From Patescibacteria group bacterium (GTDB lineage: Bacteria; Patescibacteriota; Kazan-3B-28; UBA10110): a stretch of 64,000 bases of DNA. This document shows positions 11,542 to 57,879 of this stretch, one piece after another. Numbering within the stretch: position 1 is the first letter of the stretch; each line of letters begins with the position of its first letter. The DNA lies in the NCBI GenBank assembly GCA_043802665.1, contig JAZDKW010000010.1, positions 4,024-68,023 on the forward strand, in the 5' to 3' direction. The notes beneath the pieces were generated by a model. The model saw nothing but the letters and a program-made list of their open reading frames with translations. It did not search any database and was not told the origin of the DNA. The position numbers and the translations under genes were made by a program.

Positions 11542-11655
11542 CAATCCGAAAGGGTCGCTTCTGCGGGCGGGTGGAAGGGGGGTCTGGGGGGAATTCCGCC
11601 CGCCCTACAAATTTTGGGCGAAATCGGTTCGAATTTTTTCGAACGCACACCGCCA
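11542..11655. repeat. IR-a right copy (114 bp) ending in CCGCCA.
   Basis: Identical to the reverse complement of 10270..10383. Confidence 0.85.
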
Positions 11656-11656
11656 A

Positions 11657-11736
11657 TTGGGAAATGTCTTTGTTGGCTCGCCCTCTGCGAGGGCTCGCCA
11701 GCCGATTTTAAGCGCAAATCGGAATTTTTTATCTTT
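11657..11736. repeat. IR-b left copy (80 bp).
   Basis: Identical to the reverse complement of 13169..13248. Including CCGCCA, the match is 87 bp with one mismatch. Confidence 0.85.
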
Positions 11737-11806: not shown

Positions 11807-13435
<1,629 letters not shown>

Positions 13436-14067
13436 ACGAACCAAAAATATTCAAATAAGAAATCACGCTTGGAACGCTGTATAAATAGATTCTTCTCCCT
13501 TCATCGGTGATGTGCGGATTTATCCCGACTTCCTTTAGGATCTTCGCTGTGGAAATAATCAGTTTTTTAGAAGAATTGGTGAAACAGAAACCAATATTAT
13601 GGTATGGCGCATTCCTTACAATATGGTTATGTATGAATAAGCAGCCATCTGTATCCACACATCCTCTGACAAATGCTTTCTGGTATTCAGGATTGTCATT
13701 TATCCATTTTGGAATATCAATTTGTTGAACAACTTTGTTCCCCCTTACTGCACCTTTACCGACTAGAAAATCTAATAGGTTGCTCCCCGAACAAATAAGA
13801 ACTAACGCATTTTGATTAGGCCTTTTTCTAATATACACGTTGATCTCAAATAATTTTCTTAAGAGTCTGTCAATGTACTGCGAATATTCCAGATCAGAAT
13901 TAGAGTTGAGGGTAATGACAAGTTGCCAATCATTGTTTATTCCTCCGTCACCAAAAATAATCCCAAATAATTCTGCCAGTTCCTTTGATTCGTTAGGAAT
14001 ATTAACAATTTTTCTGTGGCTTTTCTTAGGATATTTTAGTAACGAATAATCCATTGTTTAATAAATT

Positions 14068-14093
14068 GCACTCGGCCACTATGCGACCTCTCC
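14068..14093 (-). other. tRNA-Ser-like 5' fragment (acceptor plus class-II D-arm) 14 nt upstream of the endonuclease start.
   Basis: Minus strand reads GGAGAGGTC-GCA-TAGTGGCCGAG-TGC; shares GGAGAGGT with the intact tRNA. Confidence 0.3.
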
Positions 14094-37354: not shown

Positions 37355-37397
37355 GCGGGAGATTTTCCATTTTGGTGGACCGTACCGGATGATTTTC
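37355..37397. repeat. Direct duplicate of the tRNA-Ala 3' end plus part of its downstream hairpin (19 bp exact TGGTGGACCGTACCGGAT).
   Basis: Identical to 37537..37555; flanks GGGAGATTTTCCATTTTGG versus GGGGAGTTTTTCATTCTGG. Confidence 0.6.
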
Positions 37398-37502
37398 CCT
37401 GCTGCTGCAGGGGCCCTTCGTTCGCCGCAATAAGGAAAGACACATACATATAAAGCAGCTCACGGACGAACCTCTCCCCGGTTTTCATCTGCACTATCAC
37501 CA

Positions 37503-37536
37503 GAATGAAAATCTCCCGTCGGGGAGTTTTTCATTC
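37503..37536. terminator. Perfect hairpin immediately 3' of tRNA-Ala.
   Basis: GAATGAAAATCTCCCGtcGGGGAGTTTTTCATTC. Confidence 0.5.
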
Positions 37537-37613
37537 TGGTGGACCGTACCGGATTCGAACCGGTGACCTCTACGATGCCATCGTAGCGCTCTACCAAGCT
37601 AAGCTAACGGCCC
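37537..37613 (-). tRNA. tRNA-Ala (anticodon GGC) with the G3:U70 identity pair.
   Basis: Manual fold: GGGCCGT/ACGGTCC acceptor, D-arm GCTT…GAGC, anticodon stem CTACG/CGTAG with loop ATGGCAT, T-arm ACCGGTTCGAATCCGGT, ACCA. Confidence 0.82.
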
Positions 37614-49658: not shown

Positions 49659-49784
49659 ACTATGTTTCTACTGATAATAGAATACTATATTAGATACGGA
49701 TACTGAACCACGATAAATAATCTGATAGTCCTCCGTAGCTCTATTAAGAGCGAAGGACGGGCGGGCGCATCGCTTTAGTATATC

Positions 49785-52598: not shown

Positions 52599-52769
52599 TT
52601 AGCCGACACATCGGCAACTGGGACCGCCGGAATCGCAATCGCATGGATCACAATTGCAGTCGCAATTGTCACATGTGATACCGCGTTCCGTTAACTGTGG
52701 GGTGTTAATTGTGGATACAGCTGCCATGTCAATGATGGTTTCGAAGCCACAACCTGACAGATTATCCAT
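52599..52769 (-). CDS. Cys/Asp-rich precursor peptide (56 aa from ATG 52769; the ORF track extends to GTG 52790). The sequence is MDNLSGCGFETIIDMAAVSTINTPQLTERGITCDNCDCNCDPCDCDSGGPSCRCVG.
   Basis: GGGGA ribosome-binding site 7 nt upstream; starts 15 nt after the stop of the radical-SAM gene; nine Cys; terminator follows. Confidence 0.6.
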   Translation of the reverse strand: MDNLSGCGFETIIDMAAVSTINTPQLTERGITCDNCDCNCDPCDCDSGGPSCRCVG

Positions 52770-52783
52770 AGTATCATCCCCTT

Positions 52784-54115
52784 TCAGCACGATATTAATA
52801 TCCTCTGTTGATAGAGTGCTGATACAAACTTGGGTAGCAATAGCTCTGTGAGCTTATTCAAGCTACATGGAAACTCAAAAGTATTTATACGATCAGCGAA
52901 TAAGAATCTGGTTGCCTCCTCATTTAAGAAAGCGGCACACTGATTACCAATATAAACTATAGAGCCAAAATTCTCTTTACGCCAACGCAAATCTGGGTTA
53001 AGCGCTAGATTATTCGGCAACATAACAGAATCGTCTTGGAATTGCTTCAATTTATAGAAACTCTCCAAAGCATCTTGTGCATCAGATGGACTCACAAGAG
53101 AATCCTCGGCACCAAACTCCCCATTGATAACCTCGGCTTCCGCTCGACACCCTCCCCCACAAATCAAGAGCGCTTTGCACTTTTTACAAATCGGGGGTAT
53201 TAATGAACCGTCTCTCCACTCGTACATTCTTTGCCAAATAGCACACAGCGATTCATTGAAGATATTGCCATGACTAATGCTGACATGAGTGCAGACTCTT
53301 ACTTGTCCTAGCGCGGATACAGCTACAGCAGTGATGCCAGCCGAACATCTCTTTCCAGCTACCATGTGGTAACGGAAAACATCTTTGATAGCACATAGAG
53401 GATACACGGTCAAGACCCCTGTTCTTAGATTATATTCTTTCTCCAATTGGACTAGATCTTCCAAATAACTGCGTAATTCCATTAAATCTAACGAATATTC
53501 CCTAAATCCGGCACAACCTGACGGACATGTTGCTCTCGTGACATTAAAATTACTTATCCCGAGACTACGAACTAATTGTGCGGTTTCTCTAATGTAGTGC
53601 TGATTCAGGTGAGATACGACCATATTAACAGAAACATTCACTTGATTCTCTTTCAATAATCGTATGCCTTTGATCGTCTCTTGAAATGATCCGGATCTCT
53701 GTGCTATGTCATCATGAATCTTCTCATTCTGCCCCATGATCGACACTAAAACACTAGTGAGATGTTTATACCGACTTAATGCCTTAGCATCATCATTATC
53801 AAGGTTAATTAATGTAGAATTGACACTCGCTACGGCCAATGTGCTCTTTTCTATCCGATCCAGAGCACAGTACAGAGATTCTTTGTTCATCAGGGGCTCT
53901 CCTCCAGTCAGTACTACATAGAACACCTGAGACCTCTCTAATTCATCCAAAACATGCTCTGTTTGATTCAGAGACATTTGGGCACATTTCTCGGAGAGGT
54001 CAGAAGTCTTAACATCCTTTCTGCGCCAATAGTTATAGCAATGTATGCAATTATTTGGACACAGACTAGATATCTCCAACTGAACAGTTAGCGGAGATGA
54101 TAGGGTTTTGTACAT
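52784..54115 (-). CDS. Radical SAM enzyme with a C-terminal SPASM/twitch auxiliary Fe-S domain. Probable start is MYKTLSSP at 54115 with an AAGGAGG ribosome-binding site; the ORF track extends to 54175.
   Basis: CPNNCIHC (Cx3Cx2C) 18 aa from the N-terminus; C-terminal CKKCKALLICGGGC (Cx2Cx5Cx3C); a further roughly 120-aa C-terminal domain. Confidence 0.85.
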   Translation of the reverse strand: MYKTLSSPLTVQLEISSLCPNNCIHCYNYWRRKDVKTSDLSEKCAQMSLNQTEHVLDELERSQVFYVVLTGGEPLMNKESLYCALDRIEKSTLAVASVNSTLINLDNDDAKALSRYKHLTSVLVSIMGQNEKIHDDIAQRSGSFQETIKGIRLLKENQVNVSVNMVVSHLNQHYIRETAQLVRSLGISNFNVTRATCPSGCAGFREYSLDLMELRSYLEDLVQLEKEYNLRTGVLTVYPLCAIKDVFRYHMVAGKRCSAGITAVAVSALGQVRVCTHVSISHGNIFNESLCAIWQRMYEWRDGSLIPPICKKCKALLICGGGCRAEAEVINGEFGAEDSLVSPSDAQDALESFYKLKQFQDDSVMLPNNLALNPDLRWRKENFGSIVYIGNQCAAFLNEEATRFLFADRINTFEFPCSLNKLTELLLPKFVSALYQQRILISC

Positions 54116-54382
54116 AGTTAACCCCTCCTTATTGTTCGATTTATCAAAGGGCTTTATTATAATACCAGAAAGCAAAAACTATGTCCAGATAACACTTTTT
54201 GCCGAAAATTATTATAAAAATTAATAAAGGGGGGCAACTTAGACAGGTTTCTGCGATCTTTACACCATCCTGACTGTTCAGGCAAGCAGGATATCATTTT
54301 TAAACATTATCCTGAGTTATTAAAGAATATTAATGCCGGACAGGTCGCTCTAATAAACTACGCAGGGCGGTCTTCGCTTTTA

Positions 54383-54613
54383 TTAAAAATGTTTCTTCAA
54401 AAATGCCCGACCAGAACCTGACTTAAAATACTTTTCTAATTCAAAAGCTTTATATTTGTCTTGAAGCGCTATATAAAAACAAAGTTTTACTGGTAAACGG
54501 TCTTTGGTTGCTGAAACATAGCCTTTTCGATGTCTATTGACTCTATCTTTCAAGTCATCAGTGCAACCTATATAATAACCTTCTCGACATTTCAGCGAAT
54601 AAATATAATACAT
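54383..54613 (-). CDS. Small GIY-YIG nuclease (UPF0213-like), copy 1.
   Basis: MYYIYSLKCREGYYIGCTDDLKDRVNRHRKG. Confidence 0.7.
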   Translation of the reverse strand: MYYIYSLKCREGYYIGCTDDLKDRVNRHRKGYVSATKDRLPVKLCFYIALQDKYKAFELEKYFKSGSGRAFLKKHF

Positions 54614-54644
54614 AATCTGCTATGGTAGCCCGCTTTCATTCGTC

Positions 54645-54718
54645 TCTGGCGAACTTCGTCACGCCGTAGGCCCTGACTTCGTCCAGCCGAAAGCGGACTT
54701 CGTCACGCCGTAGCCGAG
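54645..54718. repeat. Three tandem units of about 22 bp, (G)ACTTCGTC(A/C)(C/A)GCCG(T/A)A…, just 3' of tRNA-Ser(TGA).
   Basis: GAACTTCGTCACGCCGTAGGCC / TGACTTCGTCCAGCCGAAAGC / GGACTTCGTCACGCCGTAGCCG. Confidence 0.55.
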
Positions 54719-54732
54719 CTCCAGCGAGGCGA

Positions 54733-54824
54733 TGGCGGAGAGGGTGGGATTCGAACCCACGATACCCCTTACGGGGTATGCCAGTTTTCAAGACTAGTGC
54801 CTTCAACCGCTCGGCCACCTCTCC
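54733..54824 (-). tRNA. tRNA-Ser (anticodon TGA).
   Basis: GGAGAGG-TG-GCC-GAGCGGTTGAA-GGC-A-CTAGT-CTTGAAA-ACTGG-[variable hairpin]-GTGGGTTCGAATCCCAC-CCTCTCC-GCCA. Confidence 0.85.
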
Positions 54825-54845
54825 ATATAGAGCCAAGTGCGGTTA

Positions 54846-54938
54846 TGGCGGTGAGGGAGGGATTCGAACCCTCGCGGGGAATTGCTTCCCCCTACCGGTT
54901 TAGCAAACCAGCCCCTTCAGCCTCTTGGGTACCTCACC
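54846..54938 (-). tRNA. tRNA-Ser (anticodon GCT).
   Basis: GGTGAGG-TA-CCC-AAGAGGCTGAA-GGG-G-CTGGT-TTGCTAA-ACCGG-[variable hairpin]-GAGGGTTCGAATCCCTC-CCTCACC-GCCA. Confidence 0.85.
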
Positions 54939-54958
54939 ATCATAACCGCACTTAGTAA

Positions 54959-55198
54959 TTATTTTAATCTACGATGCAAATCTTTGTGCCCATCGCTGGA
55001 CTTCAAGAACCTTTCTCTTCTCTGAGCTATCAGTTTATCTTGGTAGGCTTCATAGCAAACCAACACAAACGGGATTCTATATTTAGTAGATGTTACTTTG
55101 CCGGCTTGATGCTCAGCAAATCTTGATTTTAAATTATCGGTTGAGCCAATGTAATATTTACCATCTTTGTTACTTTTTAGCACATAGACATAATGCAT
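54959..55198 (-). CDS. Small GIY-YIG nuclease (UPF0213-like), copy 2.
   Basis: MHYVYVLKSNKDGKYYIGSTDNLKSRFAEHQAGK. Confidence 0.7.
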   Translation of the reverse strand: MHYVYVLKSNKDGKYYIGSTDNLKSRFAEHQAGKVTSTKYRIPFVLVCYEAYQDKLIAQRRERFLKSSDGHKDLHRRLK

Positions 55199-55239
55199 GG
55201 ATATATTTTATTAAAGGATTCGCCCTAAATTCTCAGGGC

Positions 55240-55392
55240 GCCCCGCCTGCCCCGCGTATGCTGGGGCGAATGCCGGGGCGAACCCTCGCGGGGAATTGCT
55301 TCCCCCTACCGGTTTAGCAAACCAGCCCCTTCACGTCCTGCGTATGCGGGACAGCCTCTTGCCCCACATGCACGGGGTGCAGGTACCTCACC
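55240..55392 (-). pseudogene. Degenerate copy of tRNA-Ser(GCT): a 53-nt identical core with two roughly 20-nt GC hairpins inserted in the D-arm and the 3' T-loop/acceptor replaced by a third hairpin.
   Basis: 55281..55333 matches 54865..54917 exactly; insertions CGTCCTGCGTATGCGGGACA and CCCCACATGCACGGGGTGCA; the 3' end is replaced by …CCCCGCGTATGCTGGGG…. Confidence 0.45.
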
Positions 55393-55741
55393 ACATAACG
55401 CCTTCGGCGTAACTTATCCAATTTATCAATGTAACACCGATTTCCAATTGATAACATCAGTAGCAACTATATCAAGGTGAGTATCTAACTATTTAAGAAT
55501 ACCATTAATCTCTCCCCCTTTAAAAAGAGGTTCGCCGAACTTTTCTTGGAATCCGAAGCGGTTATTGGAGCTGGGATTATTCTTGTCTTCATCCCGGCAT
55601 TGGAGCCCGAGCGTACTGTAGACAGAAAATCGCCGTTGTGTAGCCAACTGTTAGAGTATTCCTTTAAGGAATACGAGTTTGGCGAGAGCAGTAAGGAGAT
55701 TTTATGATGCTGCAGAGTGAGGGCGACTGCCGGAAGACTTT

Positions 55742-55766
55742 GGTTACTTTCCTCGGGAAAGTAACA
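55742..55766 (-). terminator. Hairpin after the gene at 55777..57879.
   Basis: GTTACTTTCCtcgGGAAAGTAAC. Confidence 0.45.
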
Positions 55767-55776
55767 AGAAAAATCC

Positions 55777-57879
55777 TCAAAAGGCCACATATAGGAACTT
55801 TTGATAGGTAATCGGGAAAGGCGGTAATTCAGTCAATCTTTTTTTTACTTTATTAATAAAAAAATTAGCAATGGCTTCTGGCACGGCCAAAAATTTTTGA
55901 GCGATGGTGGTAACTGGAGGCACCCCATTGATTATTGAATATATCCAATTAGTGCCATACTTGCTAAACACTCCGTTGTCTATCGGGCTATGGCTAAAAT
56001 GTATATCCGCATAAGTATATTTCCCATCGGCCCCGCTATTATTCATCGACACTCCCTCATCCCCTACTGCATCAATCCCAAATGGAAATACATCCCGACC
56101 CGAAGGACCATTATCTAAATCATCTTCTGGTGAAAAAGTAATGATCTGCTTTACCACCAAACTCTCATCAAAATGGGCTGGGTTATTAATAGTCTCCGGG
56201 TCTGTACTCAAGGTAGTTTTATTGGGCATCGCCATTAGTTCTTGAATAACCAAACGGATCTTATGGCGCGCTTCATACGCCTCCCGATAATCTAAATCCC
56301 CTTCTGCCCACCCTACCATATTGGCGACCTGGGTCCCACGATAAACATTATCGATTAACTCGCGCAGTGATCGAGTATTCGCTGGGCTACCCAACCCTTT
56401 AACTCTATCCGTTAACTCGCTATCTGGTATCAAATTCACCTCATCATAACTATCCAAATCATTAATCCCAATGACAGCGTTAAGATACTGAACCTTTGCC
56501 AAAGCAATATTAAAATGCTCTTTGGTATCTGAAGCTAAATTGGCTTGGTTAGACCAAGAGTCAACCCTTTCTAATAACTCCTGGGTTCGATGGAATTTCT
56601 CAAAGATCATCCTTAACAAACCTCGGGCGTATCTCCCATTAGCTAAATCGTTCTTGTATCCTTGCACTGTCTTCAAAGTCAAATCGCTTGTATCACTATA
56701 AAAATTTTCCAGAACAGAGATTTGTTTGTCCAAAAATCCGACCGTATAAGCCAGTTCTTCCCAGGTGTTGCGAACTATTTTCTGCATAGTTGTTTTCTGC
56801 CAATTGACCGCCACTGGTGCCGCTACCGGCAAGCCGCAAGCTGTATCAGCACTTTGCAGTTCTGGGATAACACTCCTATCTATTTCAGTAATCGCCATCG
56901 CCTGCCCAGTATTAAAAGCGGATAAGGTTTCTTTGGTCTCAAGTTTTTCTAAAGCCTTGCGATCATCGGCTGACAGCCCACCTATGTAAGATATTCGATC
57001 GGCCGTGCTCATATCATTCCAATCAGGAGGCAAAATAGCACTGTCTGTCCGATAACTATATTGGTCTAATCCAATCACTATGTCGTCACGTAAAATAACA
57101 GGCCCTCCGGTTTTTAGAAGATCCACCCGAATTCGCTGATGAATATCGGTAAGATAGTCTAATGTTTTAAGTAAACGGATATCCAAACGATGATGAAACT
57201 TTCCCGTGGTGTCATCAAATTGCCAATTTAAATCTTCTTTGCTCTCATCAGAAACTACTAATTTCGGGTCACAGCCAGACATCTTGGCTTGCAAATCATT
57301 CACAATAGCTCTGTCCTCGGCACTATCATAATTAGCCGCCATAAAGAGAGACCCCCCCGCCAAACTATTAATATAGTTCTTGCCCGACATGAAAATAGCC
57401 ATAAAGATCACAACTACCAGAATGATCGCCATAGTAATCCACCCGGCAGGGCTTGTCAAGAAAGCCGCAACAACTCTCGCTCCAGTTGCGACCGCCTGCC
57501 CTGTTCCCTTGCTTGATCGAGCTACTTTTTGAGCTACCTCTATAGCTTTACCTGCTCGTTGGGCTACATTCCCTTTTGCAAATTCAAAAGCATCTTTGCC
57601 TAATTCGGCAACAGATGGCTTTCCTGTAGATTTGCCGGCTCTGGCTTTAATGCCTGGCTTGAATTTAGGAGTACTCGCCGCAGTTTTTCCCTCGGTTTTT
57701 TTGGCTGGAATTTTTTCCTTAGGTTGCTGGTTTTTTTGTTTTCCTTCTGGACGCGATCTTCTATTTTGCCGAGTAGTTCGACGAGGTTGTGGCTCCTCCT
57801 CTTCTTGTTCTCCTTCCTCCTCCTCTTCCTCATCCGGAATCAGCTCATCTTCTGGTTGTAACAACTCTTCGTCTGCCAT
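55777..57879 (-). CDS. Large hypothetical protein: acidic/Lys-rich disordered N-terminus, one TM helix, roughly 480-aa extracytoplasmic domain. Possibly associated with the neighbouring type IV secretion-like genes.
   Basis: ORF architecture only. Confidence 0.35.
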   Translation of the reverse strand: MADEELLQPEDELIPDEEEEEEGEQEEEEPQPRRTTRQNRRSRPEGKQKNQQPKEKIPAKKTEGKTAASTPKFKPGIKARAGKSTGKPSVAELGKDAFEFAKGNVAQRAGKAIEVAQKVARSSKGTGQAVATGARVVAAFLTSPAGWITMAIILVVVIFMAIFMSGKNYINSLAGGSLFMAANYDSAEDRAIVNDLQAKMSGCDPKLVVSDESKEDLNWQFDDTTGKFHHRLDIRLLKTLDYLTDIHQRIRVDLLKTGGPVILRDDIVIGLDQYSYRTDSAILPPDWNDMSTADRISYIGGLSADDRKALEKLETKETLSAFNTGQAMAITEIDRSVIPELQSADTACGLPVAAPVAVNWQKTTMQKIVRNTWEELAYTVGFLDKQISVLENFYSDTSDLTLKTVQGYKNDLANGRYARGLLRMIFEKFHRTQELLERVDSWSNQANLASDTKEHFNIALAKVQYLNAVIGINDLDSYDEVNLIPDSELTDRVKGLGSPANTRSLRELIDNVYRGTQVANMVGWAEGDLDYREAYEARHKIRLVIQELMAMPNKTTLSTDPETINNPAHFDESLVVKQIITFSPEDDLDNGPSGRDVFPFGIDAVGDEGVSMNNSGADGKYTYADIHFSHSPIDNGVFSKYGTNWIYSIINGVPPVTTIAQKFLAVPEAIANFFINKVKKRLTELPPFPITYQKFLYVAF

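Follow-up and report, generated by a model that had tools for sequence, protein, structure and literature searches.

An analysis was conducted of a 64,000 nt stretch of DNA from a Patescibacteria group bacterium, the whole of which is referred to here as the window and which has a GC content of 43%. On its minus strand, between positions 54383 and 55392, two small GIY-YIG nuclease genes, g1 and g2, lie beside a pair of serine transfer RNA (tRNA) genes. With a probability of roughly 60%, g1 and g2 encode the nucleases of free-standing selfish cassettes of the homing type, which are very small (0.35-0.5 kb), form two lineages and are situated within or against tRNA genes. The comparisons point to a nuclease linkage with tRNA genes generally, rather than with serine tRNA genes, and suggest that three independent element lineages are present in the window.

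Two cassette layouts are distinguished. In type A, a co-oriented tRNA starts between -25 and +150 nt from the stop codon of the nuclease gene. In type B, a co-oriented tRNA ends 0-300 nt before its start codon. The order on the minus strand is a displaced 5' copy of tRNA-Ser(GCT), g2, the intact tRNA-Ser(GCT), tRNA-Ser(TGA), a repeat-bearing leader and g1. This order, proposed in an earlier sequence-only reading of the window, was borne out by ARAGORN, Infernal, Pfam and Tandem Repeats Finder (TRF), the last of these also finding the tandem repeats that had been noted between tRNA-Ser(TGA) and g1. The features are as follows.

55216-55392, minus strand: displaced 5' copy of tRNA-Ser(GCT), from nt 1 to the T-arm, in blocks 100% identical to the intact gene
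55362-55381, minus strand: insertion 1, a 20 nt GC-rich hairpin after tRNA nt 11 (TGCACCCCGTGCATGTGGGG)
55332-55351, minus strand: insertion 2, a 20 nt hairpin in the D-loop (TCCCGCATACGCAGGACGTG)
55221-55278, minus strand: insertion 3, a 58 nt double hairpin centred in the T-loop motif GGTTCG^AATCC
54959-55198, minus strand: g2, GIY-YIG gene encoding 79 amino acids (aa), Pfam GIY-YIG E value 1e-14, type A cassette
54943-54953 (left arm) and 54835-54845 (right arm), minus strand: inverted repeat of 11-12 nt extending the acceptor stem of the intact tRNA-Ser(GCT)
54846-54938, minus strand: intact tRNA-Ser(GCT), found by ARAGORN and Infernal
54733-54824, minus strand: intact tRNA-Ser(TGA), found by ARAGORN and Infernal
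54614-54732, minus strand: leader of the g1 cassette, GC-rich, 119 nt, beginning at the 3' end of tRNA-Ser(TGA) with TCGCCTCGCT
54648-54713: degenerate tandem repeat in the g1 leader, period 21, 3 copies, found by TRF
54383-54613, minus strand: g1, GIY-YIG gene encoding 76 aa, Pfam GIY-YIG E value 3e-11, type B cassette

The g2 start codon lies 17 nt past the end of the displaced tRNA copy, and the intact tRNA-Ser(GCT) begins 20 nt past the g2 stop codon. The displaced copy consists of nt 1-11, nt 12-21, a 53-55 nt core and AATCC, and it ends in the T-arm without the 3' acceptor strand. The sequence-only reading had seen here a third invaded tRNA-Ser copy. A degenerate copy does exist at this place, but it is not a separate gene; it is instead the displaced 5' part of tRNA-Ser(GCT), left there by the g2 cassette. 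A comparable structure is seen in the relatives L001, L081 and L118. The L001 locus, with a g2 homologue 82% identical to that of the window, was compared with L132 and L103, which have no GIY-YIG gene upstream of tRNA-Ser(GCT). Around 130 nt upstream of the displaced fragment in L001 align with the upstream flank of the intact tRNA-Ser(GCT) in L132 and L103, and the alignment extends to and through the first 13 tRNA nucleotides. The displaced fragment is therefore the gene's own 5' part in its original position, now followed by the open reading frame (ORF) and a complete tRNA. Displaced tRNA fragments of this kind mark the insertion of a cassette inside a tRNA gene.

Metagenome contigs were scanned with a 26 nt core of tRNA-Ser(GCT), identifying 59 loci. 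At least 12 of these contain no GIY-YIG gene but retain the order 700 aa protein, tRNA-Ser(GCT), tRNA-Ser(TGA), membrane protein and tRNA-Arg(ACG), among them L088, L093, L107, L115, L117, L119, L121 and L136. Since the same tRNA pair lacks a nuclease gene in so many syntenic relatives, these can be regarded as empty sites. Also among the 59 loci, L118 has g2 (86% identical) with its displaced copy, and L132 has g1 (93% identical) after tRNA-Ser(TGA), no g2, and a third, divergent GIY-YIG ORF between the two tRNAs. A GIY-YIG gene also lies between the two serine tRNAs in L103. In L081 (g2 97% identical) and L001, which came from other searches, g2 is present and g1 is missing. Across loci, the two serine tRNAs are separated by anything from 1 to 1117 nt, which marks the spacer as an insertion hot spot.

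This sporadic presence at one conserved site, with the sites of the window, L001, L081, L118 and L132 filled and at least 12 others empty, is the pattern of a free-standing homing gene. The sequence-only reading had suggested a comparison with related genomes for presence or absence beside the same tRNAs. That comparison found g2 or g1 in some and neither in the empty loci, in support of the view that the nuclease genes are mobile or selfish insertions at tRNA genes. The genes do not have the distribution of conserved housekeeping UPF0213 genes without tRNA linkage.

A set of 80 loci encoding relatives of g2, picked by protein similarity alone, was scanned for tRNAs. A co-oriented tRNA abuts the nuclease gene in 43 of the 80, with gaps between ORF and tRNA as small as 1-20 nt, and an antisense tRNA does so in none. 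Type A is found in 31 loci and type B in 13, compared to expected fractions of 0.4% and 0.7% from the tRNA density of the remaining flanks (P about 1e-52 and 3e-14). The 43 genes are thus within or abutting a highly conserved target gene, another characteristic of free-standing homing genes. The tRNAs that are abutted include Ser, with four anticodons, and also Gln, Ala, Leu, Val, Asp, Trp, Glu, Pro, Cys and Gly. The proposal that this genome has a system specific to tRNA-Ser was therefore not upheld.

In a neighbour-joining tree the proteins fall into groups that match tRNA type and layout. The type A Ser clade contains g2 and L001-L006, with one member on Val. Further type A clades are on Gln, Ala(TGC) and Leu(CAA), and there are Bacteroidota type B clades on Ala(GGC) and Val. 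The g1 gene clusters with the type B genes L078_1, after tRNA-Ser(GCT), and L056, after tRNA-Glu. The g1 and g2 proteins are 46% identical and, from these groupings, represent different lineages of GIY-YIG cassette. In type A the 5' part of the downstream tRNA is present as an exact copy ahead of the ORF, while in type B a copy of the 3' part is found after it. In the Bacteroidota type B loci the displaced copy is a near-whole tRNA in which the D-loop and anticodon arm have been replaced by TCCCG...CGGGA hairpins, and the 3' end of the ORF runs into the copy. At the Bacteroidota locus L074 (1213-3640), tRNA-Val(TAC) is followed by seven tandem GIY-YIG units with a 336 bp period, each ending in a hairpin-modified tRNA-like sequence and a 31 nt tRNA 3' fragment.

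Both proteins match the Pfam family PF01541, g2 with 54.8 bits and g1 with 44 bits against a cut-off of 22.6. Alignments of 94 and 34 sequences, with g1 and g2 among them, show the residues Y5, Y16, G18, R26, H30 and E62 to be invariant or conserved to at least 96%. The ratio of nonsynonymous to synonymous substitution rates (dN/dS) is 0.04 for g2 against L081, 0.10 for g2 against L001 and 0.15 for g1 against L132, indicating purifying selection on the nucleases. To judge from their sequences, the two proteins look active. The AlphaFold model of g2, with a predicted local distance difference test (pLDDT) score of 96.4, has the GIY-YIG fold of a three-stranded sheet flanked by helices. In a Foldseek search with this model the UPF0213 protein BH0048 (1zg2) came first, followed by the Slx1 nuclease domain (template modelling (TM) score 0.69, root mean square deviation 1.6-2.0 Å) and then the I-TevI catalytic domain (TM score 0.50). 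A phmmer search matched 1zg2 (E value 2.7e-6) and 1ywl (E value 1.7e-3). From sequence and model, g2 can be placed in the UPF0213/YhbQ-Slx1 branch, as a stand-alone domain that is less close to I-TevI than to Slx1 and UPF0213. Neither g1 nor g2 was matched in exact-sequence look-ups, and NCBIfam and PADLOC gave no meaningful family or defence assignment.

The strong purifying selection, the constant co-orientation and the very short gaps to the tRNA might indicate a nuclease that serves its host. Such a protein would be co-transcribed with the tRNA and involved in processing, tRNA gene maintenance or regulation, and the tRNA fragments would be by-products of local duplication. No terminator was found between ORF and tRNA, which fits co-transcription, the scan for promoters and terminators being otherwise uninformative. 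However, many syntenic relatives, close as well as distant, have no such gene at this site, and the tRNA species differ between genomes. There are also tandem arrays and decayed copies, such as a degenerate g1-like stretch in L130 and ORF-less footprints, and no GIY-YIG enzyme is known to take part in tRNA processing. A host-serving role for the cassette nuclease is therefore very unlikely.

GC-rich palindromes interrupt the displaced fragment in nearly every type A locus, often two consecutively. The tRNA numbering runs exactly through them, with zero duplication and zero loss. Their position and sequence are kept within clades, hence the hairpins are heritable parts of the cassette. The palindrome of the Gln clade, CCCTCGGCCGTAG...CTACGGGCGAGG, follows nt 11, and the hairpins of the Ser/Val clade have the form CCCNGC-ATNC-GCNGGG. 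Insertion 3 is present in all of the Ser-clade cassettes examined (window, L001, L003, L004, L006, L081 and L118), with lengths from 36 to ~125 nt. Insertion 1 has a homologue at the identical position in L001, with substitutions that preserve the pairing of the stem, and insertion 2 is at the matching position in L001 and L006. Both are missing from L081 and L118, although these are closer relatives of the window than is L001. Most simply, insertions 1 and 2 would have been an early gain, later removed precisely when the intact tRNA, 280 nt distant, acted as donor in gene conversion. The same process would account for the co-variation of variable-arm changes seen between the displaced and intact copies of each genome.

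In L033, a member of the Gln clade, the palindrome upstream of the GIY-YIG ORF is inverted relative to that in six other members of the clade, which points to an element that acts, or flips, as DNA. The GC-rich hairpins were also considered as a genome-wide repeat family. This was rejected, as the window has 26 perfect 6 bp GC-rich hairpins that are clustered only at the recombinase element near 11 kb.

The displaced-copy region folds more stably than shuffled sequence (z = -3.3), its tRNA blocks are kept identical to the intact gene and the positions of its insertions are conserved. These would be properties of a functional RNA gene, either a multi-intron or split tRNA with joined pieces or a tRNA-like regulatory RNA. 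The copy, however, has no 3' acceptor strand and is 280 nt from an intact version of the same tRNA. Insertions 1 and 2 are dispensable, being missing from L081 and L118, and the inverted hairpin of L033 argues for a DNA-level element. The 53-55 nt core may owe its identity to gene conversion, with the intact gene nearby as donor. There is no Rfam match, and inserts of 20 nt are far too short to be group I or group II introns. A functional RNA is the least probable of the explanations considered here.

Scans with Rfam covariance models found no intron RNA at E values up to 1 in 53000-57000 or up to 0.1 in L001, L103, L118 and L132. Across the region and these four related loci the only matches were tRNAs and chance sub-threshold hits, with no intron, ribozyme or known small RNA that would account for the insertions or the g1 leader. 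A group I or group II intron in the tRNA gene was therefore rejected, there being no ribozyme match and the tRNA being restored by duplication. The arms of the inverted repeat that extends the acceptor stem diverge yet stay complementary in L001, L118 and L096. Inspection of two empty loci, L117 and L132, did not reveal this repeat. It is limited to the sub-lineage of the window, L001, L118 and L096, and was accordingly rejected as a general type A feature. It may be a processing stem for a joint transcript of messenger RNA and tRNA.

The g1 cassette would represent a mirror-type lineage, placed directly after the 3' end of a tRNA behind a conserved leader. Within the leader, the motif CTACGGCGTGACGAAGTCCGC occurs twice in the window as a 44 nt tandem duplication and once in the otherwise identical leader of L132. 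The distant Wolfebacteria locus L078 also has this motif twice, and its dual layout of type A ORF, tRNA-Ser(GCT), leader and type B ORF is like that of the window. The leader start, TCG[AC]C[TA]CGCT, was found 0-3 nt past a tRNA 3' end in 9 of its 18 matches in the 0.83 Mb scanned. Folding of the g1 leader is no better than that of shuffled sequence (z = -0.6). The g1 copy in L132 is at the same site as that of the window. From this site g1 is missing in L081, L001 and at least 12 further syntenic loci. In L081 and L001 the membrane-protein gene comes directly after tRNA-Ser(TGA), where the window has ~4.3 kb extra that begins with the g1 leader.

Besides g1, the block absent from L081 and L001 (50376-54382) contains genes for a radical SAM/SPASM enzyme (52784-54175), a GNAT acetyltransferase and a Peptidase_MA-like protein, a 191 aa ORF, and a 63 aa Cys-rich ORF (52599-52790) that ends in CDNCDCNCDPCDCDSGGPSCRCVG. 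The ~4.3 kb block resembles a small peptide-modification cluster. The adjacent tRNA-Ser(TGA) is a mosaic among close relatives (window 54733-54824 compared with L081 529-617 and L132). Many differences are found in its D-arm, anticodon stem and variable arm, but none in the 5' 8-9 nt or the last 29 nt, and this despite 97% identity of the neighbouring g2 in the window and L081.

A third serine tRNA gene of the window, tRNA-Ser(GGA), is also associated with a nuclease gene, this time of the LAGLIDADG family. The features are as follows.

13250-14093, minus strand: LAGLIDADG cassette at tRNA-Ser(GGA), consisting of a 5' tRNA-Ser-like fragment, the ORF and the tRNA
14067-14093, minus strand: tRNA-Ser-like 5' fragment GGAGAGGTCGCATAGTGGCCGAGTGCA, with a D-arm that differs from that of the intact tRNA
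13317-14054, minus strand: LAGLIDADG ORF, Pfam LAGLIDADG_3 (PF14528) E value 1.1e-11, two matched stretches
13250-13339, minus strand: tRNA-Ser(GGA)
11807-13435, plus strand: large serine recombinase, the sole recombinase in the window

The LAGLIDADG ORF overlaps the 5' end of tRNA-Ser(GGA) by 23 nt, and an identical NCBI protein is named LAGLIDADG family homing endonuclease. Its homologues, with 82, 75, 73 and 65% identity and in four distinct gene neighbourhoods, all abut tRNA-Ser(GGA) at distances of -23 to +4 nt. The LAGLIDADG and GIY-YIG genes thus appear to have come to share a cassette layout convergently and independently. The recombinase gene is flanked by 87 nt inverted repeats with 99% complementarity (11650-11736 and 13169-13255), accompanied by another pair of 27 nt. 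The right arm is directly next to the 3' end of tRNA-Ser(GGA), and the whole has the look of an invertible or insertion element in its own right. Of the LAGLIDADG/recombinase island described in the sequence-only reading, the LAGLIDADG gene is at the tRNA as stated, and the recombinase belongs to the element bounded by the inverted repeats. All three serine isoacceptors are indeed coupled to nucleases that were taken there to be selfish, but through the separate lineages of g1, g2 and the LAGLIDADG gene and not through one system.

It is well established that tRNA genes are classic integration sites at which duplicated tRNA ends are left behind. The cassettes could accordingly be ordinary islets integrated by a recombinase acting in trans, in which case the GIY-YIG gene is cargo and the fragments are duplications of the attachment (att) site. 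The location of g1 at the tRNA-proximal edge of a 4.3 kb indel and of a large serine recombinase next to tRNA-Ser(GGA) would agree with this. Against it, most cassettes are an ORF and ~100 nt with no recombinase, and each holds a single small ORF. Many of the duplications are of the tRNA 5' part and are broken by palindromes, unlike the att pattern, and the recombinase of the window is 40 kb away and has its own 87 nt inverted repeats. Islets of this kind are highly improbable as the source of the cassettes. As with the cassettes, insertion of integrase-type tRNA islands and prophages takes place at tRNA genes, and the tRNA is restored with a duplicated piece left behind. They differ in using a tyrosine or serine recombinase, in duplicating a short 3' att core and in being kilobases long, whereas the cassettes have no recombinase, often duplicate the 5' part and are below 0.5 kb. 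An integrase-mediated tRNA-targeting island was rejected because the cassettes have no recombinase of their own.

The g2 cassette is situated inside an ancestral tRNA-Ser(GCT), with its left junction in the T-loop. The complete tRNA after the ORF lets the host retain a working gene, while the original 5' part is still upstream, probably as a dead fragment. If g1 and g2 are homing-type nucleases, the nuclease would cut or nick tRNA genes that are free of the cassette, and repair of the break from the cassette-bearing copy would then spread the cassette, with the tRNA sequence on either side serving as portable homology arms. The palindromes most likely bar the displaced fragment from acting as a nuclease target, recombination partner or tRNA precursor, and in this way would stabilise the cassette. 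Cleavage, homing and the protective role of the palindromes are all deduced here from the arrangement and comparison of sequences.

There are several points that weigh against the homing interpretation. The g1 and g2 proteins, at 76-79 aa, are bare catalytic domains with no second or DNA-binding domain, where characterised GIY-YIG homing enzymes such as I-TevI and SegB need a DNA-binding domain for site recognition. No adjacent tRNA is present at 37 of the 80 loci encoding g2 relatives. The displaced copy in the Bacteroidota type B loci retains an intact T-arm, so the T-loop cannot be the target in every lineage. The restored tRNA in a cassette-bearing genome retains the whole of the presumed target, which leaves self-immunity unexplained. 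For the g1 cassette, no displaced fragment of tRNA-Ser(TGA) of at least 8 nt was found downstream, and g1 heads a 4.3 kb indel that holds unrelated genes, blurring the exact boundary of the element.

Some of these points would be accommodated if the cassette were a passive hitchhiker, spreading by homologous recombination through the conserved tRNA flanks after DNA uptake. The protein would then have another role, as an addiction toxin, in cutting DNA structures at highly transcribed tRNA genes or in repair. The tRNA arms alone could sustain such recombination. A protein without a DNA-binding domain, with a fold nearest to UPF0213 and the structure-specific nuclease Slx1 rather than I-TevI, and with nearly half of its relatives away from tRNAs, would suit a role of this kind. 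On the other hand, the protein clades track tRNA type, which suggests co-evolving target specificity, the identical layout is used by LAGLIDADG proteins, a bona fide homing family, and the tandem arrays suggest repeated targeted events at a single site. Passive spread is thus rather unlikely, though it deserves consideration.

The Slx1-like fold and the constant presence of palindromes leave room for structure-guided or nucleic-acid-guided targeting by a homing-type nuclease. In this case the hairpin-split fragment would be an active cis-component that gives the 80 aa nuclease its specificity. It could act as a co-transcribed RNA that pairs with tRNA gene DNA, or as a DNA cruciform or cloverleaf mimic for a structure-selective, Slx1-like enzyme. 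Such a role for the fragment is distinctly doubtful. If true, this would be a minimal nucleic-acid-guided or structure-guided homing system and would provide a function for the UPF0213 family.

The phage T4 protein SegB is a free-standing GIY-YIG homing endonuclease encoded within the T4 tRNA gene cluster, with a recognition site that includes the T-loop motif GGTTCRANTCC, and it drives its own inheritance together with that of the neighbouring tRNA genes (PMC2330249). Like g2, it has a GIY-YIG catalytic domain and a gene among tRNA genes, and the motif it recognises is the one that is split by insertion 3. SegB is thus a direct precedent, among GIY-YIG homing enzymes, for recognition of the T-loop motif. 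The segB gene, however, is between and not within tRNA genes, has no displaced tRNA fragments or palindromes, and belongs to a phage instead of a cellular chromosome. SegB is about 220 aa and is therefore far larger than g1 and g2.

Paquin, Laforest and Lang reportedly described, in 1994, a mobile endonuclease ORF in Allomyces macrogynus (atp6-ORF360) that brings with it a replacement gene end. Double-hairpin elements are attributed to the same mitochondrial genomes (Paquin et al. 2000, as cited in PMC3787672). As in the window, these are free-standing GIY-YIG ORFs in an essential gene that carry a replacement segment, leave the native segment as a fragment and are associated with GC-rich or double hairpins. 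The mitochondrial ORFs are larger and have a protein-coding target in organelles, whereas the cassettes have bacterial tRNA targets, a minimal UPF0213-type domain and hairpins at fixed positions within the fragment.

The UPF0213/YhbQ proteins (1zg2, BH0048; 1ywl, EF2693) and the Slx1 domain are like g1 and g2 in being single catalytic domains of similar size. Unlike these, Slx1 has Slx4 as a partner and, with a zinc-finger domain, acts on branched DNA. The Protein Data Bank entries 1zg2 and 1ywl are labelled only 'hypothetical', and no paper on UPF0213 function or tRNA linkage was found in the open-access literature searched. In the Patescibacteria, group I introns have been reported in tRNA genes; these are self-splicing ribozymes in the anticodon loop, some with HNH, LAGLIDADG or PD-(D/E)XK homing endonucleases, and GIY-YIG is not mentioned (bioRxiv 10.1101/2025.07.03.662931). 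The introns share with the cassettes their phylum and their nature as mobile insertions in tRNA genes, but splice themselves out where the cassettes restore the tRNA by duplication. Neither hairpin-split tRNA fragments nor a coupling of small bacterial GIY-YIG genes to tRNA genes was found described in open-access papers and preprints, although prior work elsewhere is possible.

The UPF0213/YhbQ-type GIY-YIG proteins are common and have been structurally solved. Judging by the present locus and those related to it, many of them are likely to be minimal selfish nucleases in tRNA genes. The combination of a replacement tRNA segment, a displaced fragment and fixed palindromes would be an intron-free way for a homing gene to occupy an essential RNA gene. 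If confirmed, it would account for the tRNA fragments, mosaic tRNAs and variable spacers of Patescibacteria and Bacteroidota genomes, and tRNA annotation would be affected. It might also yield very small nucleases with programmable or structure-based targeting.

Possible traces of similar arrangements are found at two other tRNA genes of the window. In the stretch 37373-37613 (minus strand), the 3' end of tRNA-Ala(GGC) has an 18 nt exact duplicate 146 nt downstream (37373-37390), with a similar trailing sequence. The stretch between the tRNA and its duplicate contains hairpins and no ORF, and looks like an ORF-less footprint of a type B insertion. At 49659-49770 of the window (minus strand) and 4127-4313 of L001, the start of tRNA-Arg(ACG) is repeated upstream of the gene in short form, as GCGCCCG in the former and as GCGCCCGTAGCT in the latter, followed by a stretch shared between the two genomes (gctacggaggact). 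This is missing in L081 and may be a decayed type A cassette. Finally, a conserved noncoding element of ~130 nt with two hairpins and no Rfam match precedes tRNA-Ser(GCT) in L001 (2630-2745), L132 and L103; its counterpart in the window, at 55393-55776, has a different sequence.

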